The translations under genes and the position numbers were made by a program. Shown piece by piece: positions 540-64,000 of a stretch of DNA of 64,000 nucleotides. The first letter of the stretch is position 1; each line of letters starts with the position of its first letter. The notes under the pieces were generated by a model. It saw nothing but the letters and a program-made list of their open reading frames with translations, was not told the origin of the DNA and searched no databases. Where the stretch lies: the NCBI GenBank assembly GCA_032718475.1, contig JAUCBJ010006899.1:21808-85807 (forward strand), given 5' to 3'. Origin of the DNA: Nemertoderma westbladi (Eukaryota; Animalia; Xenacoelomorpha).

Positions 540-580
540 TTAATGATTTAACAAGCCCAGAGAGATGCTTCTGAGTCATG

Positions 581-2744
581 TGATAAACAACCGCGACCTC
601 TATACTAACAGCAGAACTGTTGAACAGACTAATACCCGTTAATATCCTTCTGCCAACCTAGTAAGTTCTCGTCTAACCAATAAGACACAAAGACTGCTCT
701 ACTGTTAAGTAAAGGGGCTCAGGAGCGTGATATTACTAAATTGTAAGGGTTGCTAAATACAAAACCGCTACTTACCGTTAGATGGCGCTAATCTGCCGTC
801 CGCTAATATATTTACTAATTTTACACAACTCCTGCAAAATCGCTTGTTCCTTTCTCTACCGATTGCTCAATAGAGAGCTAACTGTTCGAATCTATGAGCC
901 ACGCAGGAATAACCAAAACAATAAACCCGAGTCGGCTCCCTAAGCTTACTTAAGACGAGTGCGAGAGGCCTTGCACTCAGAGTATTCTTACGCCTAATTT
1001 TATCACTATTAAAGCACGCTATTACCTACGTCTTTCTAATCGCGAATACTGGGGTTTCTCTAACGTAATGTGTGAATGCGAGAATATTTAAATATCAAAA
1101 TGGTACAGTAATTGTCTCTCGTGGATAGTACCACTCTGGGTCTACAATTGCCTGCAGCTGGCTTTAGGCCAGCAAATCACTAGCGTTTCGTGCGTACCGA
1201 ATAGTGCGTTCTAGCTGATTGCCCGCTAATGCAAATAACTGCTCAGCGTGAATAGTTTACAGTACACTAATTATTACCTTAGCTACTCTCCGCTATGCTG
1301 CGTACTAATTCTTAATTTTTTACTAATTAATTACAGTCACAAATATTTAACAGCGTACTAATTACTAAGAGTTCCAGAATACGTAATTCTAATTTATCAC
1401 GCAACAGGTTTCGCTAGTAATAGCCTAAATTGCCGTATTACTTTGACCTAATCAGTAACTAATTGTTGTAACTAAGAAATAGAAACCAATCAAAGAGAAA
1501 AGAGCGCCTACCTAAACATTCACAATCATAGGCACACTTCAATAACACACCAATCAGCGTTAGAAATCACAGTTTACAATTATGCAATTCACTACTCGTA
1601 CTCCACACTCAACGTTCGAAACGTTATGATACGTGCAGGCCTCTCCCGGGTACATATAGGACTCCTAACTAACCTGATTCCCGCCCCCCTAATACTAAAT
1701 AGAGACGAAACCTGGATCATCAGCCCCCTAATTACCGTACCGGCGATTGGTCTGCGTACCACAGCGTTAACTTCCCGACCGCAACCGTGACCCCACGCCA
1801 GCGTTGCTCGCTTTGAATCCTCCGCTCTCCCTTAGTCGCCCAACCCCCCGATGTGCCCACCGCCCGCTGGCGCCTTAGCCCTCCATTACGCTAATAGCTA
1901 CCGTAGCGGCACATGCAAATCACAAAGTCTGACAGTCTCAGAAATCCCTTAGGATTATTGCGCAGAAAAGAATCACATAGAACCATTAATCAAAGGTAGA
2001 AATCATAGTTCAATTGTAATTAGCAGTAATCGAAGGAATTATTGAGAAACACAAGCAAGTAATCGCACTAGCAAATCATTTCACGAAATTAATCAAATTA
2101 GCAAATTGCAGAAAGTACGATATCCTAATACAAAATTAGAGACAGCTCAACAGCAGTGAGAATGTGTCATGTGAGTGAGAGATTGATGATAGGCTCTACC
2201 GGCACACCGCCAATTTATAGGTGATCCGGGTGGGATGATGCAATAGGGTGACTCAATCGCTCTCCTATTGGCTCTCCAGTCCATGCTAGCATTAGACCAA
2301 CCTGGAAGCAGTTAATCCAATAAGGAGGCCGGATTGTAGCCCTATTGCTCAAATTATTACCATATATGGTAATGGATCACGTCTCTGGCTGCTGAATGGC
2401 CAGGACGGCGTCCCTATGCTAGCCCTATCAAACTAATATCAGCAAGCACAAAATCCAGGGTCCGAGTAAACTCGCTACCCTGGGACTATCTACATATATC
2501 CTAATACAAAATTACGTAGGTAGGGCTACATACTATACAAAATGGATGGTTTCAAATATATGGGCGTTTTGATTTCCCTACCTAAATACCACTGCGTTAT
2601 TATGCCTTATCTAAAATATCATGCTGCACAACGGACTAATATTACGTACAGTATAACGGACTAATATTGCATACTGCATAACGGACTAATACTGCATACA
2701 GTATAACGACTAATAATGTGGATACAGCGCCATATACCGTAACA
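581..2744 (-). repeat. 3' LTR of element 1
   Basis: Direct repeat of 17401-19564; only 4 substitutions seen by eye (1145, 1240, 1786, 1911). Confidence 0.97.
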
Positions 2745-3233
2745 CCGCTCCAAGGGAAATCATATAATGTTTCCCTCCAATTGTAGAAGAGTATAAGGTG
2801 ATGTATACAAAACAAAATAAATTTCTTCCAACCAATCTAAATAACATAATAATTCTACTATTTACAAATATTGCCATAGATATTGCATAATGAATTACAT
2901 ACAAATTAAATTTACAAAATATTATCTCTCTCATTGTTTAACGATTATTACATACAAATTAAATTTACAAAATATTGTTTCTCGTTCATTCTTACTACAT
3001 AATGATTACTACATACAAAATCAAATATAAAAATTTTGCTAGGGCAAGTGAAAGGAGTAAGCCAAACCCGCAGGTTTGTCTCCCCAATCACTTCCTTCGC
3101 CTCTTTCATAATATAAATTCAAATAACTCAACTAGTGTATATGAGTCTAGTCGAAGATTTTCAAATGCTACAATATACATCAGAGCGACGATGATGTATA
3201 TATCTAGAGTCTGTCGCCCTGTGCCATAATGTA

Positions 3234-4619
3234 TTATCGACCCGCTCCTGGGTTCTTTGGGCTCGCTCCTCTCTTTCGCCCCCTTCCCAGATACACTAAT
3301 CGTCCTCTAGTCGACTCCGTTGACGGCGTCCGTGAGGCGTCACTCCCCGGAACCGACGACGACGTTCCCTGAGCCCCGACAGATTCTCGGCTCGAACTTC
3401 TCCCTCGGCCTCGTCCCAATTGTCGCGCTCCCGTGGTCGCTTCCGCCAACTCTTCCTTATGCAGTTGCACACGCGCTTTCTCCGACGCCCCCTGCGCCTT
3501 GCGCTGCAACCGTTGAGCTTCTATAATTGAATGATAGTGATCGTCCTTGACTTGACGCTTGTCTTGGACCCCTCCTCCTGGTTCTTTCCGCGAGCCTTGA
3601 GCTCCAGCGGTCGTCGCTGTGGTCGCTGCGATCCTTTGTTCCTGTATCCTCTCGGCGGTCAATGAACCCACTGGCACATGAGTCAACAAGAATTCGTTGC
3701 GGTATTGTATAGCCGCCATCCTCCAATCACCTCGCGCGCGTACCACTTTTCTAGTCTCCGTAAATACACCCTTCGTGATGCGATCGCAAATAGCAACGAA
3801 GTTCCATGTGTACTTATTGTCCATGTTCAATTGTCTGAAGTATTCTCGGACTACGATAACTCCAGTGTTTTGTGGAAGGTCTTGAGCAGTTAGGATGAGC
3901 TCCTGATATTGTGGTAGCGATTGTAGATATGGCTCGTACGCAACATGCGATGGGTCTACCGCCCAAAACCCATATCCTGCTTTAAATGGTAACCAACGCA
4001 TCTGCGCTTGAATATGGTAATCCGCCACACTCTCCCACTTATCTAACATCTCCCGAAGTAGGTTAGCGCTATGGTTTTGAAAGGAATCATCTCGCAGCTG
4101 GCATCTCGCGCTACGATGTCCCTTTACCCCACAATATCCACATTGAGAAATGAAGACGGTGCACGTGTGAAACGAATGGTCGGTCTCATTACACCAACGA
4201 CAGACCTTATGCGCCGCCTCTACTACCGCGTCGCACGACTTTAGACTGTGCCTTGTGCTGCCGCACAATTTGCACCTACGCGCTTGTGGAAACCAGGCCC
4301 TCTCGTATATGAGGTCTCCAATCGGTTTCGCACTTCCTTCCTTCCCAATGTCTAATACGATGTCGTCCTCTCCAGTCAACGGTTGTCGATCCGGAACAAA
4401 GTAAACATCCTCGCCCTTGTCCTCTATCTCCAATATTTCCTCCCGCGTTCGTTTCGGATATGTCTTCTCCACCGGAAGATCTACTCCGAACACCTCTACT
4501 AACGTTTCCGGCCAGCCCTCCTTAACAGGTCTATCAGCCTCCGAGTGGAAGGGAGTACCAAACCCGCGGGTTTGATTCCCGAACCACTTCTCCAAAGCTT
4601 CTGGCGTCGGATATTCCAT
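3234..4619 (-). CDS. Element 1 accessory ORF, C-terminal part: triple CCHC zinc-knuckle protein with basic RG-rich tail
   Basis: CKLCGSTRHSLKSC, CRWCNETDHSFHTC, CGYCGVKGHRSARC (each C-x2-C-x4-H-x4-C); in frame with 4626-6941 across a single TGA; homologous to the C-terminal part of 60240-62789. Confidence 0.85.
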   Translation of the reverse strand: MEYPTPEALEKWFGNQTRGFGTPFHSEADRPVKEGWPETLVEVFGVDLPVEKTYPKRTREEILEIEDKGEDVYFVPDRQPLTGEDDIVLDIGKEGSAKPIGDLIYERAWFPQARRCKLCGSTRHSLKSCDAVVEAAHKVCRWCNETDHSFHTCTVFISQCGYCGVKGHRSARCQLRDDSFQNHSANLLREMLDKWESVADYHIQAQMRWLPFKAGYGFWAVDPSHVAYEPYLQSLPQYQELILTAQDLPQNTGVIVVREYFRQLNMDNKYTWNFVAICDRITKGVFTETRKVVRARGDWRMAAIQYRNEFLLTHVPVGSLTAERIQEQRIAATTATTAGAQGSRKEPGGGVQDKRQVKDDHYHSIIEAQRLQRKAQGASEKARVQLHKEELAEATTGARQLGRGRGRSSSRESVGAQGTSSSVPGSDASRTPSTESTRGRLVYLGRGRKRGASPKNPGAGR

Positions 4620-4625
4620 CGACGG

Positions 4626-6941
4626 TCAGTCTCCCAAATCTCCGATGTTCTGTCGATATACTCCTTCGAATATCGCTAATCCTCTCCTCACCATCGACGT
4701 ATTCTCTAACGATTGGTTGAAGAACGGGGTTAAGAAACGCTTCATCACGTCGGATTGGATTCCCCCTTTCGAGCGAACGTATTGATCTCCTCCGAATACC
4801 AATGGATGACGCTTCAAAACTCGCGCAACGATATCCGCTAATAAACAAGTCACCGTGTTCGACTCAAGCACCAAATAATATTGTAGCGACGCACGGGGTG
4901 GCGCGCAAATGTTCCAATACACTAACGCTTGCCGCTTGAAGTGGGATTTGAACTCCGCTCCCGGTGGCGTGTTGTATTCGCCATACGCCTCCTCGTACTT
5001 CTTTTGCGTCTTTAACTTAAAGTCCCAATTATACAACAAGTGTGCTATAAAGCCCATACCAGTCTTGGCAGAGTTGGGATACTCCCTATAAATTCCAATA
5101 TCCTGTGCCCATAGCAACAATAGCTTGGTGTCGACAAACGGTCTCGGCAATCTATCTTCCAGATCAGTCATGGCGTTGAAGTCACTCTCCAAATCGCTCT
5201 GGACTCCCGATCCCACCTTGACGTAATCTTGGTTGAGAATAGCCTCTCTAACTTTCTTGGGTAACATCCTGGCGTCGATACGCTCCGCTCCGTGCATACC
5301 TCCTCGCCTGCATACCTCCAAAATCTGTTCCCTAGGATCCTTCCCCTTCCGATATTGTGTCGTTATGATGGGCTCCGGTCTCTCTCGATCCGCCCTCACA
5401 CGCATAAACACATGAGTCACACCATCGGCCGCACGAATTTGAATACACTTGCTAGTCAAGCATTCCTGATGGGACCCTCCTTCATTGTCGTAGAACATCA
5501 CCCTCCAATCCTGCAGTGATTCCTCCGTCTTCCTCCACCGACGCTGAATCTCGTCTGATGGGGTCCACATGCGCTCGATCGCCTTGTGGTCATCATATCG
5601 GGTATAAGAACCCTTCCTCCTCAGCCACGTCTGGTCTACCTCCTCGTCGTCTGGGAATGTAGCCACCGCGACCCATACCTTGATGTACTTATCCAACCAT
5701 CCGAATAGCTTACTCTCCTTCCCCGGAGCTCCAATCTTATCCAACGTGTCATAATCTATGATCTGCATTGGGACATCACGCAAGAACTTCGCGCATAAAA
5801 CTTCCCGTAGACAGTCAACGTTCCAATGGTCCGCCATTCTTACCATCGGCAAGAATCGTATCGCTTCTCGCGACTCCGGATGATCTACTAATATCGCAGG
5901 TTCGGTGCCGTCGGAATAATACACCGGTCCGGGTTGAGATACGACCTGTGGAACAAATCCGGTCACTCTCCTCGTCTCCTCTTGATGTCTATCCGCGGTC
6001 TTATTATACTCCGCTATCCTGTTCTCAAATAACTCTTTCGCCTTCGCCGCTCGCTCCTCCTGCCGCAACGCGTCTATGTCGTCCTGATGCTCAGGCGTGA
6101 GGCTTCTCACTCGGTGAGGTGAAGTAAACGCAGTCCAGGGACTCGAGAGCTCCAAACCCGCGGGTTTGGTACCCGAGTCCCGCGCCGCTTCGCGCCGCGC
6201 CTCTAGATCCTTATAGGCTCGGTACAGCGAAATGGCCGCTGCCGTCTCTATCAAACTGGGTGTCGAACAGGGTTTAATCTCCGTATACGGATCTAATGTC
6301 GTAACGGTCGGCGTAATGGGTCTCGGAAGTCGCTTTCCACTGAAGTCGATACTGATCATCGGGTTGCTCATCGGGTAACCTCCCTCGTTGTATCTAAGGA
6401 ATTGGTGAGCTGGACATCGCGTTAATATCGGTTCCGGATGTTGCTCGTCTAGTCGGTCGGGAATCGCCACGTCCTGTTTATTCATGCATTCACCACACTT
6501 GTAGAAGAGCTTGTATACGCTGAAGACCTTCGGCGTCTCCTGATCCTCGCCTCGAGTCCTCCGATACAGGTGCATTCCGTCGAACTGGTCTCGGACTGCA
6601 GGTAGAGGCTCCTCATGTCGTAAATACATATTCATATGGTATAGTCGTGCGATTTCCTCGTCCGGATCTGCGCTAATGTCGCACACGACCAAAGCAAAGT
6701 CGTAGGGATACCGCGTGCGATACTCTTTCCGCAAAACTTCCATCCGGTCCCCCAACGCTCTCATTCTTTCTCTCCGTAATTCTTTATCATAACTTGGTTT
6801 ATACTTCCCGTTCAGCTCCATCACGGACCGCCCATGGTAGTAAACGTTAGAGTCTTTACATCCTGGTCGCGCGAATGGTAGCTCCGCCTCCTCTCTGGCA
6901 GTAAATCCTCTGCGCGGTTGCGCTCTAATATCCCTCTCCAT
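4626..6941 (-). CDS. Element 1 accessory ORF3: unknown N-terminal region plus DEDDy-like 3'-5' exonuclease domain (WRN/EXD/MUT-7/RNase D type)
   Basis: 771 aa; ExoI FYDNEG, CIQIRA strand, LPKKVREAILNQDYVKVGSGVQSDL (ExoII), FVDTK, ExoIII-like QYYLVLE. Confidence 0.8.
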   Translation of the reverse strand: MERDIRAQPRRGFTAREEAELPFARPGCKDSNVYYHGRSVMELNGKYKPSYDKELRRERMRALGDRMEVLRKEYRTRYPYDFALVVCDISADPDEEIARLYHMNMYLRHEEPLPAVRDQFDGMHLYRRTRGEDQETPKVFSVYKLFYKCGECMNKQDVAIPDRLDEQHPEPILTRCPAHQFLRYNEGGYPMSNPMISIDFSGKRLPRPITPTVTTLDPYTEIKPCSTPSLIETAAAISLYRAYKDLEARREAARDSGTKPAGLELSSPWTAFTSPHRVRSLTPEHQDDIDALRQEERAAKAKELFENRIAEYNKTADRHQEETRRVTGFVPQVVSQPGPVYYSDGTEPAILVDHPESREAIRFLPMVRMADHWNVDCLREVLCAKFLRDVPMQIIDYDTLDKIGAPGKESKLFGWLDKYIKVWVAVATFPDDEEVDQTWLRRKGSYTRYDDHKAIERMWTPSDEIQRRWRKTEESLQDWRVMFYDNEGGSHQECLTSKCIQIRAADGVTHVFMRVRADRERPEPIITTQYRKGKDPREQILEVCRRGGMHGAERIDARMLPKKVREAILNQDYVKVGSGVQSDLESDFNAMTDLEDRLPRPFVDTKLLLLWAQDIGIYREYPNSAKTGMGFIAHLLYNWDFKLKTQKKYEEAYGEYNTPPGAEFKSHFKRQALVYWNICAPPRASLQYYLVLESNTVTCLLADIVARVLKRHPLVFGGDQYVRSKGGIQSDVMKRFLTPFFNQSLENTSMVRRGLAIFEGVYRQNIGDLGD

Positions 6942-7702
6942 TATGCCTCGCGTATATACATATATATATATCCCAATAAGTGCCGTTACGTAACCAACTA
7001 CACTGTGGGTAAATCAGTTAGATGCCGCCGAAGGACAGACCTCCCGAACCCCCCCCCGCCTTCCAGCAGTTCAGGTTCGACTCTCTAGATCCCGTCTCTT
7101 CCTAACTAACTATCCTCTAACCTATTCCCATGCATAGCGCAAAAACTTTGGAGATAAACTGGCCGTGACCAACTCACTTTTTGATGCCCAAACTACTCCC
7201 ATTACTCCTACTAAACTACAGTAGTTAGAAAGGACCATAGCCACAATACTCGACTATACCAAACCCACAGGTTTGATAATCGAACATCACACATCCTGCA
7301 AACTACTGAGTGGGGTCCGTGCACGCCTCTGGTGCTACTAACCTTTAGCACCCTAGTTGCACTGTTGGCACCAATCTGTGGAAGTTGCTAAACTCAATTT
7401 ACACTCCTACGTAATATAGCCGTCACCATGGTTTCTAAATGCTATTTTCCAGGCTTCACGACTTTCAAATTACTGTTTATCTATAGACGAATTCTAAAAC
7501 GCGTCTATACACAGCGTCTGGAATTGTCTTGGGTTCACTTCTAATTTTTTAAAATTTTAAATTTTCCAAAAAATTTTTGAAAATAAAATTTTGTTTTGAT
7601 ACCCACCAGACAAAACTCAACGCAAATCACCACAACCCCGCTCCTATGCATTTCCGTGTATTTGCATACGAGGAATGCATACGAAGTGAGTTGCCTCTAA
7701 CA

Positions 7703-8759
7703 CTAACTCTGTTTGGAGGCAGGAGACAAATTATAATCTCCCGTCTCGATACGTGTCTCCTCTAATAACACAATATCTTGGACCGGTCGGTCCAAGGTGT
7801 GTAAACCATTAGTTTTACACTTTTTTGGGTGCGGACACTTGCACCTAATTTTCACAGTGACTGTGCGCACTATGTTTTGCACGTCTGGGTGTGTGTGCGA
7901 GATCACTCCTGTCTCCCAATACTTTCTCTTGACAATGGGTTCGGTTATCAACACGTAATCTCCCCTTTGGAGACTCCGAACCGTTTTGTACCACTTTGTT
8001 CTGGTAGATATGGTGGGAAGATAGTATTCCCGCCAATATTCCCAGAATGTGTACGCCACAAACTGTGTTACTTTCCAGCTTTTACGACTATATAGGTCGG
8101 CACTAATGGGTTCTGATGCCGGCACAAGAAATGCTGGACTCTGCATTAGCAAATGATTCGGCGTTAATGCAACACCGTCTGGCAACATAGCTATCGGACT
8201 CGAGTTTAGGGTATGCTCGATTTCAATGAAAGCTGTGACCAGTTCGTCGTCGGTAAGTTGTTTGTTCACAGGCAACGTCTTAGCAATGGCCTGCTTTACA
8301 GAGCGAACTAAACGCTCCCAACTTCCTCCTCTCCAAGGACTCTCTGGAGTATTGAATCTCCATTCTACTCGTTGCGGCAAAAGTGCTGCAGAAATTTCCT
8401 TATTCTGTGCTACTTTATGAGCCGCATTCAACTCGCTATTCCCTCCGACAAAGTTTGTACCCTTGTCAGAGTAGAACGCCTTTACTAGTCCTCTCCTGGC
8501 CATAAATCTCTTCAAGGCCAGGAGCAGAGATTTGGTCGACATGTCTGCCACACGCTCGATATGTATGGCTCTACTAGCCATACATGTCAGTAGCAGACCC
8601 CATCGCTTGTGGGTCAGCCGTCCACTCTGCTTCAATCGGACCAAAACAATCCACCCCTGTGTTCGTAAAGGGTGGGTCATATGCCTGCACTCTCGCTTCC
8701 GGGAGTTCAGCCATCTCCTGTTCCAATACTCTGGTGTTCACCCTCTTGCAAACCAGACA
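7703..8759 (-). pseudogene. Element 1 integrase core, cut off from pol by two frameshifting lesions (~8760 and ~8633)
   Basis: Alternative frame 8759-8634 reads CLVCKRVNTRVLEQEMAELPEARVQAYDPPFTNTGVDCFGPI; ORF 7703-8680 continues KRWGLLLTCMASRAIHIE, YSDKGTNF, GGSWERLV, W..YLP..RTKW. Confidence 0.9.
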
Positions 8760-23740: not shown

Positions 23741-23759
23741 TAGGAGGAGAGGACCGCAA

Positions 23760-47298: not shown

Positions 47299-47383
47299 AT
47301 TGTAATAAGTTGTTCAGAAATGGAAAAAATGATTGTTCTGTGCGAACAATCATTTTTTCCATTTCTGAACAACTTATTACAAT
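47299..47383. repeat. Perfect 40-bp inverted repeat with 5-nt loop
   Basis: 47299-47338 is the exact reverse complement of 47344-47383. Confidence 0.95.
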
Positions 47384-49130: not shown

Positions 49131-49179
49131 GGGAAATTTGAATTGTATATTGTACATTACAATTGGTGCTATTATTCCT

Positions 49180-50522: not shown

Positions 50523-50590
50523 GTAACTAAATCAGCTGCCGCCCTAGATAAACTCAATAATCAACTAGCACCGAAATCTGCAGAAGAGAG

Positions 50591-53500: not shown

Positions 53501-53624
53501 ATATACCCCGATAGTAGCAAGAACAACGAGACCCTTGGACGAAAACAGGTCGTGTGACACAGCATATATGGAGGGGGCCGCTACCCCCGATGACATACCC
53601 AAGCCAGAGAAAGTCAAGAAATAG
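50591..53624 (+). CDS. Element 2 N-terminal Gag region, low-complexity, split across frames (50591-52630 and 52530-53624)
   Basis: Frame change at G15 run 52539-52553; internal 24-bp (NFISNEQI x3) and 60-bp (GLDRPSEGLVGHTVSRQGVV ~x4) repeats. Confidence 0.65.
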
Positions 53625-56600
53625 GACAGACGGAACGCACCAGACAGGTGAAACTATACAGCACCCGTCGAATCCATTGGAAGCGCAGGCGATGGGGATG
53701 GCCACATTGATCGATGCGTTGAAAACGAGGATCGAGCTACCACCCGTGGAACCATTCAAATTCGATGGGAGTAGGCCGGAAGAATATCTACAGTTTCGGC
53801 GCATGTATAGTAACGAAATACTAACAAAAAACTTGACGCAGGCGGAGTGCCTAAAGTATCTACAAGTGTACACGGGAGGCCCAGCCTACGACATCGTGAG
53901 GCAATATCAGGGAATAGAGGGCGGCTTCACGACAGCATGGCGGGCATTGGATAGGGAATACGGGCACCCGGCCAAGATCATCAGGCAGACGCTGAGGGGC
54001 ATAACGTCGGGTGGCCTACAGGATAATCCTGTTAGCATTAAGACGTTCGCTAACAAAGTCGAAAAGGCGCTAATCGTGCTGAAGACGCTAGACGCGCCGT
54101 ACGAGCTCAATGCGTCCAACAACATCACCACGATAGCGCAGGCACTACCAAACTGGCTGCGCAACAAGTGGAGGAAAATTGCCTTCTCCACTCGAGATAA
54201 GAAGGGTGCGGAACCGGGTTTAGAAGAAATGTCAAACTTCTTAAACTACGAGGCTGAACTAATAACTGACCCAGTCTATAGCGAAGACAGCCTGGGAAAG
54301 GGACCGAAGACAGACTACCATAGACCGAAACCAGAGCACAACACATCGAACGCATTACCGAGACTCAGGCAATCATTGCCATATGCAGCGACGCAGGGGA
54401 CTGCAAGTCCACAGCTAGCCGAGGATAAGACAACATCATGGAACGGACAGGGAAACAATAACAGCACAAATAAACATAACCCCAGTACGTCCAGTAGGCA
54501 AAACCCAAACAATAAGAATAGTAGGGACTTCGGTACGAACGCAACCGCGATACGCAATGCACTGTATAAAGAAGGCTACGACCCAAAGAGCAAATGTCAG
54601 CTACACGCAAATGCGCTTCATCAAACTATGAACTGCAGGTACTGGCAGGCGCTACCCAGGCAGGATCAGATAGATTATGCGTTCAGCAATAAAATCTGCT
54701 CGCGATGTGTAATGAGTGGACATAGAGCAAGGGAGTGCAAGGAGAAGCCAATGAAATTTGGTCAAAGGAGAGGCCAAACGATGGCGACGAGCACAGTAGG
54801 GGCGAAGAAGAGGGGAACGGTGCTACTTGGAGTAGTACCAGTGCGAGTGATCGGGGAAGGCAATCGATCAGTAACAACACTAATGCTGGTTGATAGTGGA
54901 GCTGCCTTCACATTAGTCGAGGAATGGGTGGCCGTGGAGATAGGATTGAGAACGAGGCCGAGCAGGATGGCGGTAACAACCATCTCTAGCAAAGATGAGG
55001 TCCTGGAGATGAGAACAGGACGGTGCGCAATTGCAGCAGTGGCACCAGGATGCGACTATGGGGCAACCATCGACCCCATTCAAGTGATAGAGTCAATTAA
55101 TATCAATGCCAGGCGGCCAACCAACATCGAGGTTGAGCAGTACAAATTCCTGGACAACATTGACTTCTCAATCCCAGACGTGGACGTTAGGAAGGTATCC
55201 ATCATAGTAGGTATGGACTGCCCAACAGCCCACGAAAGAATGCAAACGGTCTTCGGCGAAGACAAGCAGAGTGACCCGGTGGCCATATTAACACCATTCG
55301 GGTGGACGCTGAGTGGTCCAATTAAGAGCAAGATACCATTTGGGATGTCGGAGACATCAGGATGCATGTTCGCGGGAACAATGCAGGAAATGGGTGACGA
55401 GGGAGCAGAAGAGCAGCTTAAAAGACTGCTCAGACAAGATTTTGAGGGACTGAAACAGACAGGGGTCGGGACCTCAGTAGAAGACAAGCAGGCTCTACAA
55501 AGCGTGGAGGAATCAATGAGATGCGATGAGGGACGGTATACTATAGGAATGGTATGGAAACTACCGAAGATACCGCTGCCCGACAATAGGGGGATGGTGC
55601 TCACGAGACTCCGCAAACTGAAACAAGCACTAAAACGGAGCCCCGAGAAGAATGAGTACATCCACAGAACAATTAAGAAGTACGTCGAGAAAGGATGGGC
55701 CGTGGAGTTACCGGTCGACGAGCCGAACACGGATAGGACATACTACCTGCCACTACACGTGGCTTTAGATCCAAAGAAAGGTAAACTAAGGATGGTAGTC
55801 GACGCATCGGCAAAGACCGACGGGAAATGCTTAAACGACTACCTGTTAGAAGGCCCAAACATATACAATTCGGGCATAGAGGTGTTACTTAGATTTCGAA
55901 ATGGGAAACACGCCTTCACGTGTGACATAGAAGGCATGTTCAACCAAGTCCGTGTAACGGAAGAAGATAGCGACAGTCAACGCTTCTTATGGTATAACGG
56001 CGAGGAAGAACCGCCGATAATACCAGCATATAAGATGGTAGTACAGAACATGGGGGCCAAGTCGTCTTCATTTACGACGACTATGGCAGTGAGAGACACA
56101 GTAAAGGGGAAGGAAGATAGATACAGCAGTAGGGCCGTCGATATGATTCGACGCGGCTTCTACGTAGACGACGGAATGGAGTCTGGAAATACGGTTAAGG
56201 AGATACTGGACACAGGGCGCGAGGTTCGCGACATCCTAAAAGGATCCGGCTTTAACCTGACCAAATTCCAATCCAGTTCAGAAGAATTTATTAAGGCGAT
56301 AGAGGACAGGAGACCAGAATCGACCATGGACAATCCCACAACAGCCAAAGGGCAGGACATGGCGATTAAGAGAACAGAATCTCAACAGAAGGCATTGGGA
56401 ATCGTGTGGGATAGAGAGACAGACGAACTGAAGTATCAGCTGAGCCAGGAGGGCGCAGACATCCACACGAAGAGGGGCTATGTATCGTATATAGCAAGGA
56501 TATACGATCCCCTAGGCCTAGCATCCCCATTATTAGTCACGGGGAAACAGATACTCAAGAGAGTATACAAATTGAAAGATGAGTGGGACGTAGAGGTACC

Positions 56601-58800
56601 AGAGGAAATCAAGAAACAGTGGAGCAAGTGGACAGGAGACTTGGAGAAGATGGGAACATACAACATGCCACGGGTGTATTTCCCGGATGGGAACATGACG
56701 AATCTGGACCTACACATGTTCTCCGACGCGTCGTTGGAAGCGTACGGAGCGGCACTCTACTTAGTACAACGAGAAGGGGCTCATAAGCCAAGGCTAGCCT
56801 TTAGCAAAGCAAAGTCAACGCCGCCAGATTCAGCATCTGTTCCCAAGTTAGAATTGACAGCTGCGAGACTAGGAGTAAGAGCCACAGCCTACCTAGTGGA
56901 TACTATTCCCAACATAGTGGAGACACACTACTGGACGGACTCCATGGTAGTGCTTGGTTGGCTACACAACGAAAAGACGAGATATCCGATATTCGTCGCG
57001 AATAGAGTGGACGAAATAAGGGCGAGCACAGAACTGGAAAGGTGGCACTACTGCCCAACAGACGAGAACCCAGCGGACTTGCTGTCGAGGGGCGTGGAAC
57101 GCCACACTTTCCTGAAGAAGGAAGTATTGTGGCAACATGGGCCACAATTTCTGAGCGATAGGGAGGCCTGGCCGCCGATGAGGAAGGTGGACCCGGGCTC
57201 GGAAGTAGTATCAGAAGGAGAAGAGGGAGATTCAGAGGGAGAAGAGATATACTCCCAGATGGTGAGGGAGATTAGGGACGTGCAACCAGGAAGGGAACTG
57301 TGCGATAACCCAACGGATAAACTCCTCAGCTACAGTTCTAGTTGGTATAAGACCAAGAAACTAGTGGCGTATTGGAGAGCCTTCGGGAATTTCCTTGCGG
57401 GAGTCGGCAAGGACAAGAAAATCAGGACAACCATAGATCTGGAGGGAGCGGCCAAGGCAGTGATCCGCTATGAACAACGGAAGAACTACGGCGACGAGGT
57501 GGAACGCGTCGGTAACCAACAGCACCTCCGACGGGACAGCGAGCTGATTACGCTGTCGCCACAACTCAATGACGACGGGATTCTAGTAATGAATTCTAGG
57601 GTGGGATACAACAATAGCATAGTCGTACCACCGAAACCCATCATCATTCCTACAGGATCGCCAATAGTCCACCAGATTATATGGGACTCCCACAAATCGA
57701 TATTGCACGGGGGCACCAACCGAACCCTCACAGAGATAAGGAGGACCTATTGGGTCAAACAATTAAGGAAGAAGGTTAAAGCGGTAGTGGGGCAGTGCCA
57801 GACCTGCCGACGGGCGAAGAAGGAGCGAGCCATACAGGAGATGGCGCCACTACCGGCGAGTAGGGTAAGACAGCACGACCCGCCATTTACGCATTGCGGT
57901 GTGAACATGTTCGGGCCGATAAAGATCAAGGTGATGCGACACACGGAGAAACGCTACGGTATTATCTTCGTATGCAACAATACGCGGGCGGTAGGGATAG
58001 AACTCGCCCAAGATGCAACCGCATCAGCGTTCATTAACGCCTTAGAAAGGTTCAGGGACCGCAAAGGTGGGACGATCGCAGTGATATACAGCGACAACGG
58101 CACCAACTTTGTGGGCGCAGAGAGTGAAATGGCAGAGGCCTTAGACATCTTGGAAGGGGAAGAAGTCAGGGCAGCCATGAGACGACGAGAGGTAAAGTGG
58201 GAGAGAAGGACGCCGTATGCACCACATACACTAGGATGCGTCGAGAGACTGGTGGGCAGTTCAAAGCGTCTAATGACAAAGCTAATGAACACCCACATGG
58301 TCACTGAGGACGTCTTACGGACAGTACTTGCGAAGTGCGAGGGGATCATTAATAGCAGACCGCTATATCCGGAGAATGACGACCCTGAGTCACTAGACGT
58401 GTTAACGCCTAGCCATTTCCTAATGGAAAGACCAGCGACCATCGATATGCGGGGTGTAGACCCAGATGACATACACTCCCGCCAAAGTTGGAAAATCGCA
58501 AAGGCAATAAGCGCTGAGTATTGGAGGAGGTGGGTCGAGGAATACCTACCCACGCTCCATAAGCGAAGCAAATGGAGGAAACCGAACAGGGAGTTAAGAG
58601 CAGGAGATCTTGTAATCGTTACGGATGATACTATCATCAACAACCAGTGGCGGTTGGCGAGAGTTGTAGACACCTACTCCGACGAGGACGGAAGAGTCCG
58701 ATCGGTAGAAGTGCGGATAGGTGGAAAGATAGGTGCGAAGGACAGAAAAACCTACAAGAGAGCAGTAGGGAAATGCTGTCTTCTAGAAGGGGCACCTTAG
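53554..58800 (+). CDS. Element 2 Gag-Pol (Gag core, Zn knuckles, protease, RT, RNase H, integrase with D->N at the first catalytic residue)
   Basis: FKFDGSRPEEY; CSRCVMSGHRAREC; LVDSGA; YYLPLH, CDIEGMFNQV, FYVDDG; FSDAS, WTDS, NPADLLSRG; H..HGG..CQTC, GVNMFGP, YSDNGTNF, VERLV. Confidence 0.95.
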   Translation: MTQHIWRGPLPPMTYPSQRKSRNRTDGTHQTGETIQHPSNPLEAQAMGMATLIDALKTRIELPPVEPFKFDGSRPEEYLQFRRMYSNEILTKNLTQAECLKYLQVYTGGPAYDIVRQYQGIEGGFTTAWRALDREYGHPAKIIRQTLRGITSGGLQDNPVSIKTFANKVEKALIVLKTLDAPYELNASNNITTIAQALPNWLRNKWRKIAFSTRDKKGAEPGLEEMSNFLNYEAELITDPVYSEDSLGKGPKTDYHRPKPEHNTSNALPRLRQSLPYAATQGTASPQLAEDKTTSWNGQGNNNSTNKHNPSTSSRQNPNNKNSRDFGTNATAIRNALYKEGYDPKSKCQLHANALHQTMNCRYWQALPRQDQIDYAFSNKICSRCVMSGHRARECKEKPMKFGQRRGQTMATSTVGAKKRGTVLLGVVPVRVIGEGNRSVTTLMLVDSGAAFTLVEEWVAVEIGLRTRPSRMAVTTISSKDEVLEMRTGRCAIAAVAPGCDYGATIDPIQVIESININARRPTNIEVEQYKFLDNIDFSIPDVDVRKVSIIVGMDCPTAHERMQTVFGEDKQSDPVAILTPFGWTLSGPIKSKIPFGMSETSGCMFAGTMQEMGDEGAEEQLKRLLRQDFEGLKQTGVGTSVEDKQALQSVEESMRCDEGRYTIGMVWKLPKIPLPDNRGMVLTRLRKLKQALKRSPEKNEYIHRTIKKYVEKGWAVELPVDEPNTDRTYYLPLHVALDPKKGKLRMVVDASAKTDGKCLNDYLLEGPNIYNSGIEVLLRFRNGKHAFTCDIEGMFNQVRVTEEDSDSQRFLWYNGEEEPPIIPAYKMVVQNMGAKSSSFTTTMAVRDTVKGKEDRYSSRAVDMIRRGFYVDDGMESGNTVKEILDTGREVRDILKGSGFNLTKFQSSSEEFIKAIEDRRPESTMDNPTTAKGQDMAIKRTESQQKALGIVWDRETDELKYQLSQEGADIHTKRGYVSYIARIYDPLGLASPLLVTGKQILKRVYKLKDEWDVEVPEEIKKQWSKWTGDLEKMGTYNMPRVYFPDGNMTNLDLHMFSDASLEAYGAALYLVQREGAHKPRLAFSKAKSTPPDSASVPKLELTAARLGVRATAYLVDTIPNIVETHYWTDSMVVLGWLHNEKTRYPIFVANRVDEIRASTELERWHYCPTDENPADLLSRGVERHTFLKKEVLWQHGPQFLSDREAWPPMRKVDPGSEVVSEGEEGDSEGEEIYSQMVREIRDVQPGRELCDNPTDKLLSYSSSWYKTKKLVAYWRAFGNFLAGVGKDKKIRTTIDLEGAAKAVIRYEQRKNYGDEVERVGNQQHLRRDSELITLSPQLNDDGILVMNSRVGYNNSIVVPPKPIIIPTGSPIVHQIIWDSHKSILHGGTNRTLTEIRRTYWVKQLRKKVKAVVGQCQTCRRAKKERAIQEMAPLPASRVRQHDPPFTHCGVNMFGPIKIKVMRHTEKRYGIIFVCNNTRAVGIELAQDATASAFINALERFRDRKGGTIAVIYSDNGTNFVGAESEMAEALDILEGEEVRAAMRRREVKWERRTPYAPHTLGCVERLVGSSKRLMTKLMNTHMVTEDVLRTVLAKCEGIINSRPLYPENDDPESLDVLTPSHFLMERPATIDMRGVDPDDIHSRQSWKIAKAISAEYWRRWVEEYLPTLHKRSKWRKPNRELRAGDLVIVTDDTIINNQWRLARVVDTYSDEDGRVRSVEVRIGGKIGAKDRKTYKRAVGKCCLLEGAP

Positions 58801-58929
58801 AAGTGGAGTTAGCGCTTAGTTTAGTCGTCCAAGTTTTGGACTGAGGGGGGTGGGATTGAGGGCGAGACGCCCTTCCCACATATAAAATTTGAAAAATAAA
58901 ATAAAAATAAAATAATAGTACATGAGTAG

Positions 58930-59750
58930 GTATGCAGTTAGTAGGCAGAAGGTACGTAGTACCTAATTAGTTAGTAGGTACGTAGTACCTAGAGTTAGTT
59001 AGTTAGTTAGTAGGTACGTAGTACCTAGAGTTAGTTAGAGGGTTAGTAGGTACGTAGTACCTAGTTAGAGAAGTTAGTTAGTAGGTACGTAATACCTAGA
59101 GTTAGTTAGAGGGTTAGTAGGTACGCAGTACCTAGTTAGAGAAGTTAGTTAGTAGGTACGTAGTACCTAGAGTTAGTTAGTTAGTTAGAGGGTACGTAGT
59201 ACCGTTAGTTAGAGTTAGAGTTAGAGGGTACGTAGTACCGTTAGTTAGAGTTAGAGTTAGAGGGTACGTAGTACCGTTAGTTAGAGTTAGAGTTAGAGGG
59301 TACGTAGTACCGTTAGTTAGAGTTAGAGTTGGAGGGTACGTAGTACCGTTAGTTAGAGTTAGAGTTAGAGGGTACGTAGTACCGTTAGTTAGAGTTAGAG
59401 TTAGAGGGTACGTAGTACCGTTAGCTAGAGTTAGAGTTAGAGGGTACGTAGTACCGTTAGTTAGAGTTAGAGTTGGAGGGTACGTGGTACCGTTAGTTAG
59501 AGTTAGAGTTAGAGGGTACGTAGTACCGGTAGTTAGAGTTAGAGTTAGAGGGTACGTGGTACCGTTAGTTAGAGTTAGAGTTAGAGGGTACGTAGTACCG
59601 TTAGTTAGAGTTAGAGTTAGAGGGTACGTAGTACCGCTAGTTAGAGTTAGAGTTAGAGGGTACGTAGTACCGTTAATTAGAGAGTCAGAGGGTACGTAGT
59701 ACCATTAGTTAGAGAAGAGTTAGAGTTAGAGGGTACGTGGTACCATTAGA
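58930..59750 (+). repeat. Minisatellite between pol and ORF3; core 36-bp unit GGTACGTAGTACCGTTAGTTAGAGTTAGAGTTAGAG (~14 regular copies plus degenerate flanks)
   Basis: Directly visible tandem array. Confidence 0.95.
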
Positions 59751-60239
59751 GAGAGAGAGAGTAAGAGGTAGAAGGGTATATAAGATATAGATATTAGTTA
59801 GCAGTTAATAGAGAGAGGGGGGCATATGAGCACAGCTGGATAAATCGTGTGGCCACACGACGAATACTGCTGTACTGCATGGGCCCACAGAGTAGGCCAG
59901 AATGTGGATTAGGGAATAGAATAATCCATAGGCAGTAGTAAGTAGTAGGACAGTAGAATCAAATTAAAAATAGATAAATAAATAGAATAGGGCTGAAAGT
60001 TGTAAAATGGTGGCAACATAAGGGAAGTTATTCTAGAACATAATAAAAGTAACGGACAGAAATTGTAAATTACGCTCATTTACTAGCTTCGAAATTAATT
60101 AGGAATAATTTAGGTTAAAAGGCGCAGTTAAGTAGAAGTAGGCCATTATCGAACTGTACAGAACATCCTAGATACATCACTCATCTGTATTGCGCCTTGG
60201 TAAGGCACCACCTTGCAGGTGAGCGAGTGAACGTTCGGA

Positions 60240-62789
60240 ATGGCGAGTAAGTTGATCAGAAAGAGAAAGGCGGAGTCAGGAGGAAAGGAGATACTGGTGG
60301 ATTTCACCGAGAGACATCCGGAAGAGAAGACGAGAGGATACTACGAGAGGTTGGAAAGGGGTCACGCGGCACGAGCGCTGCAGGATCACTTCCGGGAGGC
60401 GCACGAACAGCGGCTGGTCGGGACCTACGGGACCCCCTCGCTAGACAACGCGATCTTCCAACACTTCCACTACGTAGTGAAAGGGGACGAGGCGAAATTC
60501 GGGATTCCGAAATACCCGAGGGAATCACCGAGGAAGGACTGGAAAAGATTCATAGAGTCCGTCAACAGAGGAGGATATATGATCCTAGATGACGAGGGAA
60601 CCGTGGAAGACGAAGCGGGTTCGAGACGAGGAACGGCAGGGTCGGCCAGGACCATACTCCTACATTTGGCTGCGCCAAATGGGGACATCTTCTTATTCGA
60701 TCTAGGAACGTATGGGAAGAAGGACGGGCCGAAATTAGACCGATTACCGAAAGCGGTACAAGTCTTAGTAAGAGAGAAGTCGACGACGAAAGTGGGATCG
60801 GCGATTCGCGAGGACGCGGAGAGGATCATCGGTCCGGACGCCACCAACCTCCTGGATATGCAGAAAGTCTTTATGGCTATGACGGCACCGGATGGATTGG
60901 GGGTAGTCGGAAACACAGGCCAATGCGGGGCGGTGGCAATGGGCCAATTATTGGGGCTCGTATGCCACAAACCGATGGACTGGGGAAAGTTTAGGGAAGA
61001 ATACGGGGCAGAACTAGCGAACTCGCTAAAGTGGGGAGCGAGACCAGGAAAGCAGGAGGTATATCAATTCCGCAGAGGAGCGATAAAGGTATATCAGAAG
61101 CGATATATCCTGCAGGAAGACTGGATCATGATAAGTTTGCTTAACTTATTTATGACCGTGGTTATCGAGAGGGAACCAGGGGCATTTCTGTTATCGGGAT
61201 CACCCCTAAGCTACAGGAGAGCCTTTAAAGTGGCCTTCGACGGTCTGGTAGACCACCCGGGGCTGAAGGGCGAGTCGGTATACTATAACAGCCGGCATCT
61301 GGTAGACGGGGAGACAGATACACCGTATCAGAGATGGGAGCAGCTAGAAGCGGATAGACGAGAAGCAAAGCGACTGGAAGAAGTCGCCAGACGGGAGAGG
61401 ATAGAAGCAGAGGAGAGGGAAGAGGAGGCCAGGACACAGAGTTACGGCTTCGAGGAACAGGCAGGCCTAGATGAACTTCATTGCACTTCATCAGGGAGTT
61501 CGGGGGAGTCTCTAGGGCGAGAATTGGGATGGACGGTGGGATCACCGAAACAGTCGACGTCAGGGTTGCAAACGATGCCCATACCAGCGGGCGCCGAGGG
61601 CGACCAACTGCCAAGGAAGTTAAGGGAGCTAGAGGGATGGAGAGCTACGGGCGAGAGCCAAGGCGGGAAGGGACATAGTGGATCCATCGGGATACCGGGG
61701 TTGGAAACACTACCAGAAGAGGAGGACGACGGCGACGAGTTCGGAGAGATGCCGCCCATCGAGAGGATAGGCCACTCGGACACGGACTGGGTTGGCGGAA
61801 GGGTGGTGACGGCCAGTGGGGCGAGGGCCTTCTGGAACAGATCCGGCAAGCGGACCTGGGTGCACGAGGAGCCGGCGATGGATTTCGCGGGGAGCACCAT
61901 CAGGTTGGGCGAACAACCGGGGACGGCACCACGGATAGTATTCGGGGAGACGATGCCCGAGAGGGGCGGAGAGATCGATGTAGATAGAGAGGCCAACGTA
62001 GAGAAGTTCGCCTACCAGCGACTCCACAGACCGCGGAGATCGCTTGGGACGAAGGACGAGGTGGGACGGGAGACATTGGTACTCGGCTGCGACTATTGTG
62101 GGAGACAGACCCACCAAGAAAAGAATTGCCTTTACCGGTTCCAAAAGGGAACTTTTTGTCTCTACTGCCGAGAACAAAGCCACAGGATGGGGGCGTGCCC
62201 ATGGTTGCATAATCGATGTACAAAGTGCCACTTTCGGGGACACTACGGACGCGAGTGCGACTGGATGAACGACGAGGAGAAATTCACAAGGTTCGAGGAG
62301 TGGGCCGACGTCGGGGCTATGACGCGCCAGCGCATGAAGGCCCAGGAGTTTAAGTGGGGTTTCTTCCTTATCAATCAGGAGACTCACATGGAAATCATAA
62401 AGCGGAGGCTACCGTTTACCTACCAAGAGGTAGCAACGGCGGCGTCGTACGCTGGAGTGATGAACACGCAAAGGTATCTGGACAGGTGGACGCCAGACAA
62501 CCGAAGGGAGTTTAGGGATTTCTTGGCGGAGCACGTACCAAAGGCAATGAAAATGATCCTATGGGACGCCACCAGAGGGAGACAACCGGGCCACTCTGAG
62601 GGGCCACCGGCGAAGCGATATCGGGCACTAATAACACCAGCGCCCAAGGAGCCAACGACCGGGATCAGCAGGGAGGTGGCGGCGAAGGTCCGAAAACAGA
62701 AGGCGGATAATGCCAGAGGAACGGTGATAACCAAGAAACGACCCAGGGAAGAGGACGCCAGGGGGAACTACCCCCGGAGGAACAGATAG
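60240..62789 (+). CDS. Element 2 accessory ORF3: DEDDy-like 3'-5' exonuclease + acidic linker + triple CCHC knuckle + basic tail
   Basis: Intact 849 aa; ExoI ILDDEG, LLHLAAPNGDIFLFDL, LPKAVQVLV..KVGSAIREDA (ExoII), LLDMQ, QKRYILQED (ExoIII); CDYCGRQTHQEKNC, CLYCREQSHRMGAC, CTKCHFRGHYGREC. Confidence 0.85.
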   Translation: MASKLIRKRKAESGGKEILVDFTERHPEEKTRGYYERLERGHAARALQDHFREAHEQRLVGTYGTPSLDNAIFQHFHYVVKGDEAKFGIPKYPRESPRKDWKRFIESVNRGGYMILDDEGTVEDEAGSRRGTAGSARTILLHLAAPNGDIFLFDLGTYGKKDGPKLDRLPKAVQVLVREKSTTKVGSAIREDAERIIGPDATNLLDMQKVFMAMTAPDGLGVVGNTGQCGAVAMGQLLGLVCHKPMDWGKFREEYGAELANSLKWGARPGKQEVYQFRRGAIKVYQKRYILQEDWIMISLLNLFMTVVIEREPGAFLLSGSPLSYRRAFKVAFDGLVDHPGLKGESVYYNSRHLVDGETDTPYQRWEQLEADRREAKRLEEVARRERIEAEEREEEARTQSYGFEEQAGLDELHCTSSGSSGESLGRELGWTVGSPKQSTSGLQTMPIPAGAEGDQLPRKLRELEGWRATGESQGGKGHSGSIGIPGLETLPEEEDDGDEFGEMPPIERIGHSDTDWVGGRVVTASGARAFWNRSGKRTWVHEEPAMDFAGSTIRLGEQPGTAPRIVFGETMPERGGEIDVDREANVEKFAYQRLHRPRRSLGTKDEVGRETLVLGCDYCGRQTHQEKNCLYRFQKGTFCLYCREQSHRMGACPWLHNRCTKCHFRGHYGRECDWMNDEEKFTRFEEWADVGAMTRQRMKAQEFKWGFFLINQETHMEIIKRRLPFTYQEVATAASYAGVMNTQRYLDRWTPDNRREFRDFLAEHVPKAMKMILWDATRGRQPGHSEGPPAKRYRALITPAPKEPTTGISREVAAKVRKQKADNARGTVITKKRPREEDARGNYPRRNR

Positions 62790-63491
62790 GTTCCCGGAGT
62801 CGAGGGAGAGAGACTGGGACTTGGACGTGGTACGCCTGGAAGGCGCCGCGTGGGACGTACAAACTATTAAGTACAAATCTAATTAATGCAAATAATCATA
62901 TAAGTGCAATTTGTATGTACGTACGTAGTAATTAGTAATCTAGAAATATATACGTTCGGAGTAAGTACTATAGTCATACAACCTTTCTCAATTAGCTACT
63001 GGGACTGGGGGATAACTGACTATGGGACTATGGACGAGACACCAGACAATTCCACACTTCTTGAGTGCGACGGCACAAGAGGGGGGGGGGAGATTTGTCA
63101 GAAGGGATGGGACAGTCAGAGTGAGGTTGAGGGACGGAGTAATAGTGCGGAGTGCGGAGAGTGTGCGGACGCAATTCTAGCGTGAGGGGGGGAGAATAAG
63201 AGGTTGAGTGAGGGACGAGGAGGCCCAAGTGTATGAGAGAGTTAGAGTGAGAGTGAAGAGGAGATGGGGCGGAAGTGTTGGGGAAACAAAAGTTGCGTGA
63301 GAGGTGAGCGCGATCGGCCCGACATGAGACGCCAGGCACACAGGGTAGCGTTATCATACCCATAGGGGGCGGTCTGGAAAGCCGGCTCCAAGAGAAAAGA
63401 ATTCCACCCCACACCCGATACTAGATCGGGATCCAGCGGGATTGTAGCGCACTTTTTGGTTGATGCTATCTTCTTACCGGGAAGATAGCAT

Positions 63492-63500
63492 GGGGGGGAG
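63492..63500 (+). other. Polypurine tract of element 2
   Basis: GGGGGGGAG directly abutting the 3' LTR TG. Confidence 0.85.
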
Positions 63501-64000
63501 TGTTAGCTTATTCAATCCCGCTAACACCCCATAAAGTTATAAGCCGATAAGCAATATTGGGAGCCACGAGATTGGGCAATTAACCAACTCGTGCCATCCC
63601 AATAAGAGTGGGAAGGAAGCACACAATAAAGGGTCAGGGGCCAAACCCCTAACCCAGAGAGTACAGGTGGAGTGAACGGGAACACTCCACGGGGCGCCAA
63701 CAAGGGTATCAACCAATCAGAGGGGGGCAAGGCATCGATTGAGTAGAGCAATAAGGCCACCGTGCAATATAACCAGTAACACAATGTCAGTAATTCAGTT
63801 ATCTCAGTGCAGTGTAGGTTAGTTAGTTTAGATAGGGGAGCACGGGACTTTAGTTACCGTATCCCGCCTTCCGTATAATATACTACAGTCATCATATCTA
63901 TATCTTATACCTATCAATTATTATACACCGAATATCAGAACTCATTCACTATTTCCGTTTACTCTTTATACACGGCGGGGACGCGTAAACTAAACACCGG
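63501..64000 (+). repeat. 3' LTR of element 2 (truncated by window end)
   Basis: Direct repeat of 49992-50490. Confidence 0.95.

Follow-up and report, generated by a model that had tools for sequence, protein, structure and literature searches.

An exonuclease-type third gene and a self-complementary primer site in two BEL/Pao retrotransposons of Nemertoderma westbladi

BEL/Pao elements are retrotransposons with long terminal repeats (LTRs). The published profile of the Belpaoviridae gives a length of 4.2-10 kb, LTRs of 0.2-1.2 kb, the genes gag and pol and sometimes env, and an 18-nt primer site for tRNA-Arg or tRNA-Gly (PMC8742986). Here we analyse 64 kb of the genome of Nemertoderma westbladi (contig JAUCBJ010006899.1, positions 21,808 to 85,807, hereafter the window). 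The window contains two BEL/Pao elements, which we call element 1 and element 2. Both carry a third open reading frame (ORF3) with the fold of a 3'-5' exonuclease, followed by three CCHC zinc knuckles. In both, a short stretch of the element's own LTR is the perfect complement of the primer-site position. The original prediction claimed that the two traits occur together in both elements, and they do. The two families thus break three BEL/Pao rules together: to be tRNA-primed, to measure 4-10 kb and to contain gag, pol and env only (PMC8742986).

Exonuclease ORF3s of the DEDDy type in LTR elements and self-priming are each already in print. Self-priming is known from the Tf1/sushi group, and in plants it has been predicted for the Tcn1 and TAR lineages (PMC6317226). 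As in the window elements, there is no tRNA-type site in Tf1/sushi elements, and a stretch of the element's own LTR transcript complements the site by the 5' LTR (PMC6317226). Element 2 also shares with them a hairpin in the 3' part of the LTR, beside the primer site. In contrast to Tf1/sushi elements, which are Ty3/gypsy chromoviruses, the window elements belong to BEL/Pao, their match is 9 nt long (10-11 with G-U pairs), and each has a second complementary site. Furthermore, the Tf1 primer consists of the first bases of the mRNA, a position that the motif of the window elements may or may not share.

RNase D-like DEDDy ORF3s have been found in the rotifer elements Juno, Vesta and Athena/Terminon (Rodriguez, Kenefick & Arkhipova 2017, PMC5408684). 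Their authors call the function unknown and propose that the protein processes RNA 3' ends of the elements or takes part in silencing. As in the window elements, the extra ORF lies downstream of pol and has DEDDy motifs with a DEED change (PMC5408684). As a further likeness, a Cys-His-Cys motif is noted in some rotifer copies (PMC5408684). Unlike in the window elements, neither a CCHC array nor a self-complementary primer site is described in the sections at hand (PMC5408684). The rotifer elements form a deep-branching clade that is treated apart from BEL/Pao (PMC5408684). We liken the two sets of ORF3s by description, not by sequence. The structure of Juno and Vesta was reportedly described by Gladyshev et al. 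in 2007.

The solved structure nearest to ORF3 in overall architecture is RNase D of Trypanosoma brucei (TbRND; PDB 7c42-7c4c), whose combination of exonuclease and CCHC fingers its authors call very unusual (PMC7797062). TbRND is a cellular mitochondrial enzyme that trims the U-tails of guide RNAs, not a transposon gene (PMC7797062). It has four fingers and a 28-residue linker, whereas ORF3 has three knuckles, a low-confidence linker of ~280 residues and an extra helical C-terminal domain.

Two BEL/Pao elements with an exonuclease-type ORF3

ORF3 lies downstream of pol in both elements. Its parts are as follows.

3234..7013, minus strand: element 1 ORF3, one frame (7013-4629, 795 aa; 4625-3237, 463 aa)
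~4725-5561, minus strand: element 1 ORF3 exonuclease domain (family alignment)
~4098-4274, minus strand: element 1 ORF3, three CCHC knuckles (family alignment)
60231-62789, plus strand: element 2 ORF3 (P0001), 852 aa, open, first ATG at 60240
~60462-61235, plus strand: element 2 ORF3 exonuclease domain, with D120, E122, D195, Y292 and E296
~62088-62258, plus strand: element 2 ORF3, three CCHC knuckles, after a low-confidence linker
~62268-62576 (about residues 680-782), plus strand: element 2 ORF3, helical C-terminal domain (AlphaFold model)

Both halves of ORF3 show distant homology between the two elements (E 3e-4 and 2e-9). In each, a DEDDy domain is followed by CCHC fingers in one polypeptide, as in TbRND; in element 1 the two parts are split by a single in-frame TGA (4626-4628).

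Standard searches do not recognise this protein. Pfam gives no match in either window ORF3, even at E up to 10. A word-index protein search with P0001 and with a 30-sequence alignment of the ORF3 family (A1) gave no match of near or longer length. An exhaustive HMMER search of 1.84 billion representatives found 80 proteins at E <=1e-3 (best E 1.1e-15), nearly all of them via the knuckle region. A local iterative profile, which omitted one repeat protein (P0050), finds the N-terminal exonuclease domain in 36 of 83 stored proteins, both window proteins among them. At least 36 stored proteins with the exonuclease domain belong to the ORF3 family, for which Pfam has no model. Two of 37 relatives come close to PF01612 (DNA_pol_A_exo1), scoring 23.3 and 21.4 bits where 23.6 is required.

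The fold emerges once the family is used as a profile. A1 matches the exonuclease domain of EXD2 (E 2.3e-13), T. brucei RNase D over exonuclease and CCHC fingers (2.2e-6), the knuckles of Lin28 (1e-5), the WRN exonuclease (7.1e-4) and Egalitarian (2.5e-3). The ExoI, ExoII and ExoIII columns of A1 align with those of solved DEDDy members. With A1 as input, AlphaFold gives confidence scores (pLDDT) in blocks of 80-90 across most of residues 70-335 and exceeding 90 across 620-700; from the single sequence, the N-terminal domain of ORF3 reaches a pLDDT of 32 only. All top Foldseek matches of the ORF3 model are DEDD exonucleases. VIA gives Z 13.2 to the EXO domain of Nibbler (root mean square deviation 3.5, 203 of 219 residues aligned) and Z 12.5 both to WRN and to T. 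brucei RNase D. In a language-model atlas, 25 of 30 feature matches belong to a PF01612 set.

The catalytic motifs are visible in the ORF3 alignments as ExoI DxE, ExoII GSxIxxD, DT, and ExoIII Yxxx[D/E]. Both window ORF3s have D-E-D-Y and then E in place of the final D (YxxxE). Among the 30 members of A1, 17 have D-E-D-Y-[D/E] and 13 lack the full signature. The knuckles vary less. All 30 members retain the zinc ligands Cys in each knuckle (29/30 for one Cys) and His in knuckles two and three; the His of knuckle one is kept in 19/30. The profile, AlphaFold, Foldseek and VIA results together bear out the claim that ORF3 joins knuckles to a 3'-5' exonuclease. At the level of fold and motif we confirm that both elements encode a DEDDy-type 3'-5' exonuclease fold with three CCHC knuckles; catalysis is predicted.

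Among 40 of 760 variant rows, seven variants fall in ORF3 of element 2, five of them at third codon positions by our own arithmetic. This sample is too thin and too selected for a claim of purifying selection, and we make none.

Self-comparison of the window reveals two LTR pairs, which belong to two divergent BEL/Pao LTR retrotransposons. Their remaining parts are listed here.

581..19564, minus strand: element 1, BEL/Pao, 18,984 bp (LTR pair, target-site duplication, Pfam)
17401..19564, minus strand: element 1 5' LTR, 2164 bp, TGTTACGG...TTTATCA (3' LTR 581-2744, 99.8% identical)
14653-16218, minus strand: element 1 gag-like ORF (ORF list)
8707-14652, minus strand: element 1 pol ORF, Peptidase_A17 and DUF1759 (Pfam)
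7703-8737, minus strand: element 1 integrase C-terminal piece in another frame, DUF5641 (Pfam)
49992..64000, plus strand: element 2, BEL/Pao, leaves the window (LTR pair, Pfam)
49992..50522, plus strand: element 2 5' LTR, 531 bp, TGTTAGC...GTCACA
50561-52630 and 52512-53624, plus strand: element 2 gag-like ORFs (ORF list)
53518-58800, plus strand: element 2 pol ORF, DUF1759, Peptidase_A17, Integrase_H2C2, rve and DUF5641 (Pfam)
63492-63500, plus strand: element 2 polypurine tract GGGGGGGAG, adjoining the 3' LTR start at 63501

The BEL/Pao identity proposed for both elements stands. Pfam finds Peptidase_A17 (E 3.1e-40 in element 2, 4e-38 in element 1), DUF1759 (1e-10 and 1.5e-9) and DUF5641 (8.6e-25 and 1.8e-17). 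Like canonical BEL/Pao elements (PMC8742986), both combine a Pao-type pol with a DUF1759 Gag and a DUF5641 integrase tail. TG...CA LTR ends and a short target-site duplication are also present. In element 1 the duplication is CATGA at 576-580 and 19565-19569 (5 bp). Element 2 is judged on its TGT...ACA ends, because its 3' end lies beyond the window and any duplication is out of sight. Its LTR copies (49992-50490 and 63501-64000) are 99.0% identical over 500 bp, the second being truncated by the window end. If the 3' LTR also measures 531 bp, element 2 is predicted to end at ~64031 and to be ~14,040 bp long. The Pol proteins of the two elements are 32% identical over 624 aa, a stretch that extends past Peptidase_A17 towards the integrase. 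Thus they represent two old, divergent families.

What separates them from canonical BEL/Pao elements, which have at most gag, pol and env (PMC8742986), is the exonuclease as a third gene, a primer site that is not of the TGG type, and size. Element 1 measures 18,984 bp with LTRs of 2164 bp, and element 2 a predicted ~14,040 bp with LTRs of 531 bp. Both exceed the published size ranges, which are descriptive and do not exclude membership (PMC8742986).

Another task for ORF3 is conceivable. The protein may serve fidelity or counter-defence: it would proofread cDNA 3' ends of unusually long retroelements, trim or degrade small silencing RNAs of the host, or bind RNA as an adaptor without catalysis, as Egalitarian and EXD1 do. 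Element lengths of 19.0 kb (element 1) and ~14 kb (element 2, predicted) exceed the 4.2-10 kb of the family (PMC8742986) and would suit such a role. Nibbler, WRN, EXD1, Egalitarian and polymerase proofreading domains are among the nearest folds. A binding role agrees with the loss of catalytic residues in 13/30 relatives, whose ORFs stay long. A role in silencing is mentioned in the rotifer study (PMC5408684). However, much of the extra element length is non-coding (LTR and repeats), and a task of this kind is compatible with self-priming rather than opposed to it. We regard it as a possibility on the unlikely side.

Several minor features of the coding regions deserve mention. In element 1 the gag-like and pol ORFs share a frame with one stop between them (14650-14655, minus strand), and the C-terminal part of the integrase lies in a different frame and overlaps pol by 31 bp (8707-8737, minus strand). 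In element 2 the first gag-like ORF contains in-frame tandem repeats at 50816-51037 (111-bp unit, two copies) and 52165-52464 (60-bp unit, about five copies), which give repeated peptide blocks. Between pol and ORF3 of element 2 (59039-59794) lie about 20 tandem copies of a 36-bp unit. The length of this array differs among family copies in public contigs, where joints skip 39-679 bp.

Complementarity between LTR and primer site

In both elements the sequence directly next to the 5' LTR is the perfect complement of a 9-mer inside the LTR.

18455..18447 (LTR 1110-1118), minus strand: element 1 primer-like motif CACGTATCA, 3' LTR copy 1635..1627 (complement scan)
17391..17400, minus strand: element 1 primer-site position, G and then TGATACGTG (17399..17391), perfect complement of the motif, one base past the 5' LTR
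17285..17293, minus strand: element 1 second TGATACGTG copy in the leader, 106 nt downstream of the first
50340-50348 (LTR 349-357), plus strand: element 2 primer-like motif TTTAGTTAC, 3' LTR copy 63849-63857 (complement scan)
50523-50531, plus strand: element 2 primer-site position GTAACTAAA, perfect complement of the motif, directly past the LTR

The motifs lie at the predicted coordinates in both LTRs of each element. In element 1 the duplex of motif and primer site grows to 10-11 bp when G-U pairs are counted. Within ~1,400 nt downstream, its motif finds its two best duplex partners in the primer site and in the second TGATACGTG. The second copy has a wider context: the last 5 nt of the LTR together with the primer site (TATCAGTGATACGTG) recur 106 nt downstream in the leader (17285-17405, minus strand), and the surroundings of both copies are similar (...GCTGTA...GCGTACAGTAA).

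Neither primer-site position starts with TGG, unlike the 18-nt site for tRNA-Arg or tRNA-Gly. TGG is the complement of the CCA end of tRNAs. ARAGORN finds no tRNA gene in the 64-kb window, which says little about the remaining genome, and no Rfam family reaches its gathering score there. Hence both elements show the pattern known from Tf1: no tRNA site, and a site by the 5' LTR that complements the element's own LTR transcript, here as perfect 9-mers at offset 0 (element 2) and 1 (element 1).

The end of the element 2 LTR at 50522 is not readable in the window itself. Public DNA of this species includes a 424-nt contig that matches the window over 50460-50522 and is unlike it thereafter. One loose end in public contigs reads ...GATCCCGTCACA and then continues into unrelated bases. 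These two observations support 50522 as the LTR end.

Short complements can arise by chance, and we consider it extremely improbable that both of these did. The matches are short, they were deliberately looked for, and the LTR end of element 2 lies outside what the window can tell. At internal control positions, a complement of at least 9 nt to the element's own LTR occurs at offset 0-1 in 213 of 14606 cases for element 1 (1.5%) and in 52 of 12928 for element 2 (0.4%). Markov shuffling of the LTRs yields 0.9% and 0.8%; for element 1, with its long LTR (2164 bp), chance stays at 0.9-1.5%. Against chance stand a joint probability of roughly 1e-4 and the independent contig behind 50522. Two further arguments, the shared core in front of both motifs and the conservation of the element 2 9-mers, follow from a comparison of the LTRs.

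18473..18495, minus strand: element 1 conserved core, AGGTTAGTTAG at 18495..18485 and TATATG at 18478..18473 (LTR comparison)
50307..50339, plus strand: element 2 conserved core, AGGTTAGTTAG at 50307-50317, TAGATA from 50320, then GGGAG (LTR comparison)

The LTRs of elements 1 and 2 are otherwise unalignable and share one 11-mer, AGGTTAGTTAG. It stands upstream of the motif by 40 nt in element 1 and by 33 nt in element 2. Both LTRs have the same frame: AGGTTAGTTAG, a TATA-like box (TATATG in element 1, TAGATA in element 2), GGGAG, 7-8 nt, and the motif. Shuffled LTRs share any 11-mer in 22% of cases, but within 60 nt upstream of both motifs in 1/3000. The motif itself differs between the two families, and each primer site differs accordingly. 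With a conserved frame and a motif that co-varies with its primer site, the pattern is compensatory, although it represents one contrast.

Public DNA runs of the host contain the element 2 family in very high copy number (thousands). Across these copies, the most conserved islands in the LTR interior are 50320-50349, which contains the motif, and 50455-50529, which contains its partners and the LTR end. Word depth is ~25,000 in the first and 46,000-141,000 in the second; in between it drops to 300-11,000. Of the substitution rows listed (23, each with >=5% share), none falls within either 9-mer. Among the indel rows listed, indels lie just outside the 9-mers (behind 50339 and behind 50533).

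The motifs were also predicted to lie downstream of promoter motifs. This is borne out in part. Element 1 has TATATG 23 nt upstream; element 2 has only a TATA-like TAGATA 20 nt upstream, and TCAGTT 54 nt upstream. AATAAA and ATTAAA are absent from LTR 1, and the sole one in LTR 2 is upstream of the motif. Therefore U3, R and U5 cannot be delimited.

Priming and the role of ORF3

We think it probable that both elements are self-primed in some way, because they have no TGG, a rare complement to their own LTR, a conserved frame around the motif and a compensatory difference between families. A 9-11-nt stretch of the element's own LTR transcript would pair with the site directly past the 5' LTR and prime minus-strand synthesis. 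The cut that leaves its 3'-OH would more likely come from RNase H of the element, following the Tf1 model, than from ORF3. The known self-primers of the Tf1/sushi group use RNase H, and none is known to carry an exonuclease gene. The 13/30 ORF3 relatives without the full catalytic signature also make RNase H the more likely cutter. A separate RNase H model was not matched in either pol ORF by the Pfam scan. ORF3 itself would be an accessory protein, whose knuckles bind single-stranded nucleic acid and whose predicted exonuclease trims 3' ends. This whole combination, with self-priming, a primer cut by RNase H and an accessory ORF3, is a tentative proposal that we place just short of an even chance. 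We infer four of its parts: the motif as primer, the start position, the cutting nuclease and the catalysis by ORF3.

The design would depend on where transcription starts. A start at the motif's first base would give a Tf1-like design. With a start past the motif, U3 would end in the motif, which would then occur near the RNA 3' end only; for this a 3' exonuclease would be the natural tool.

A number of observations weigh against self-priming as set out here. In both LTRs the TATA-like box precedes the motif by just 20-23 nt. A start at 25-31 nt from such a box would fall inside the motif or directly past it, so the motif would be missing from the RNA 5' end, unlike a Tf1-type primer. The Tf1 primer duplex is 11 nt, and by this analogy a 9-nt duplex would be rather short. 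The tRNA-type site is judged absent from the missing TGG and not by comparison with host tRNAs or internal tRNA segments. The evidence from ORF3 is also affected: the invariance of the knuckles is in part an ascertainment effect, because the relatives were found via the knuckle region, and the relatives that have lost catalytic residues may include dead copies.

Other pairings in the LTR RNA complicate the picture, and element 2 offers two candidates.

50464-50484, plus strand: element 2 longer imperfect complement of the motif region, GGCGGGGACGCGTAAACTAAA (fold/duplex calculation)
50497-50517, plus strand: element 2 perfect hairpin CGGGATCC-CTCCT-GGATCCCG, directly before the LTR end

The motif region of element 2 pairs better with 50464-50484 (-24.5 kcal/mol, imperfect, ~19 bp) than with the primer site (~-11), and the fold as a whole is unremarkable (z-score -1.5). 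The complementarity may be structural, belonging to a leader RNA that serves packaging, dimerisation or the control of initiation. Some host RNA, for instance an internal piece of a tRNA or a different small RNA, would then be the primer, and ORF3 would stand apart from priming. The longer helix fits this explanation, as do the two motif-complementary sites in each element, which would suit alternative conformers. Priming by half-tRNAs exists in other LTR elements (PMC6317226). On the other hand, the complement begins exactly at offset 0 or 1 past the LTR, where the 3' end of a primer must sit. TGG is missing, and the window is without a tRNA gene or Rfam match (which has little bearing on the remaining genome). 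A compensatory difference would be expected if the primer is copied into the primer site in each replication cycle. Hence we hold a purely structural role to be unlikely.

Alternatively, the exonuclease may make the primer. This was the integrated claim of the original prediction: the ORF3 exonuclease, guided by its knuckles, trims the 3' end of an LTR-derived RNA back to the primer-site duplex and leaves a 3'-OH at 50348/63857 in element 2 and 18446/1626 in element 1. The substrate would be the 3' end of the genomic RNA after removal of R, or a short LTR transcript. In its favour, element 1 and element 2 each combine the two traits, and both window ORF3s retain the catalytic set. Exonuclease plus CCHC is the design of T. 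brucei RNase D, which trims the 3' tails of guide RNAs. The TATA spacing of 20-23 nt allows the motif to form the last bases of U3, which a 3' exonuclease could expose and a 5'-end mechanism could not. Moreover, 3'-end processing of retrotransposon RNAs by DEDDy ORF3s has been proposed in the rotifer study (PMC5408684).

However, it is the components that hold, while the causal link between them is conjectural, so that the integrated hypothesis is partly supported. The traits occur together within one lineage: the ORF3 architecture is shared and the LTR core is homologous. Therefore their co-occurrence is one evolutionary observation (n is effectively 1). If the genomic RNA were cut back to U3, it would lose its 3' R, on which the first strand transfer of that molecule depends. 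Trimming also needs a free 3' end nearby, which exists only if the motif ends U3 or sits on a short LTR transcript. Together with the 13/30 relatives that lack the full catalytic signature and the self-primers that, to our knowledge, do without an exonuclease gene, these points make primer formation by ORF3 very unlikely. We return to self-priming with a primer cut by RNase H as the preferred reading.

In the literature searched, judged mostly by titles and abstract starts, an exonuclease ORF3 in BEL/Pao, its fusion to knuckles and the large size did not turn up. A link of BEL/Pao with self-priming did not turn up either, judged by titles and abstract starts. A term search of de la Chaux & Wagner 2011 gave no mention of primer sites or an exonuclease.

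If self-priming is true, the mechanism extends to a third LTR superfamily. The ORF3 family means that the exonuclease-plus-knuckle design recurs in metazoan retroelements, and it links up with the DEDDy ORFs, so far unexplained, of rotifer retroelements. If the primer were made by an exonuclease, this would be a third route to start reverse transcription in LTR retroelements, beside tRNA and self-primers cut by RNase H. It would also be the first function assigned to the DEDDy ORFs of several retroelement classes.

Surroundings in the window

Element 2 sits within a very high-copy repeat (49226-49991). A minus-strand ORF in this repeat (49226-49969) is by appearance the tail of a reverse transcriptase of a long interspersed nuclear element (LINE); Pfam gives only a sub-threshold DUF6451. 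Many public contigs extend beyond 49970-49974 with bases that the window lacks, which is consistent with uninterrupted copies of this repeat.

Other repeats lie farther away. A tandem duplication of 3.16 kb spans 40678-47004 (40678-43841 and 43838-47004, 99.6% identical). A satellite-like repeat of ~163 bp occurs at 1-320 and again ~38.4 kb downstream at 38404-39331, and its copies are 94-97% alike between the two sites.

Between the two elements, the region 22838-27756 contains a LINE endonuclease (Exo_endo_phos_2, 23892-24626) and a PIF/Harbinger-type transposase (DDE_Tnp_4, 26950-27756). An uninterrupted tetraspanin-like ORF also lies between the elements, at 35758-36834.

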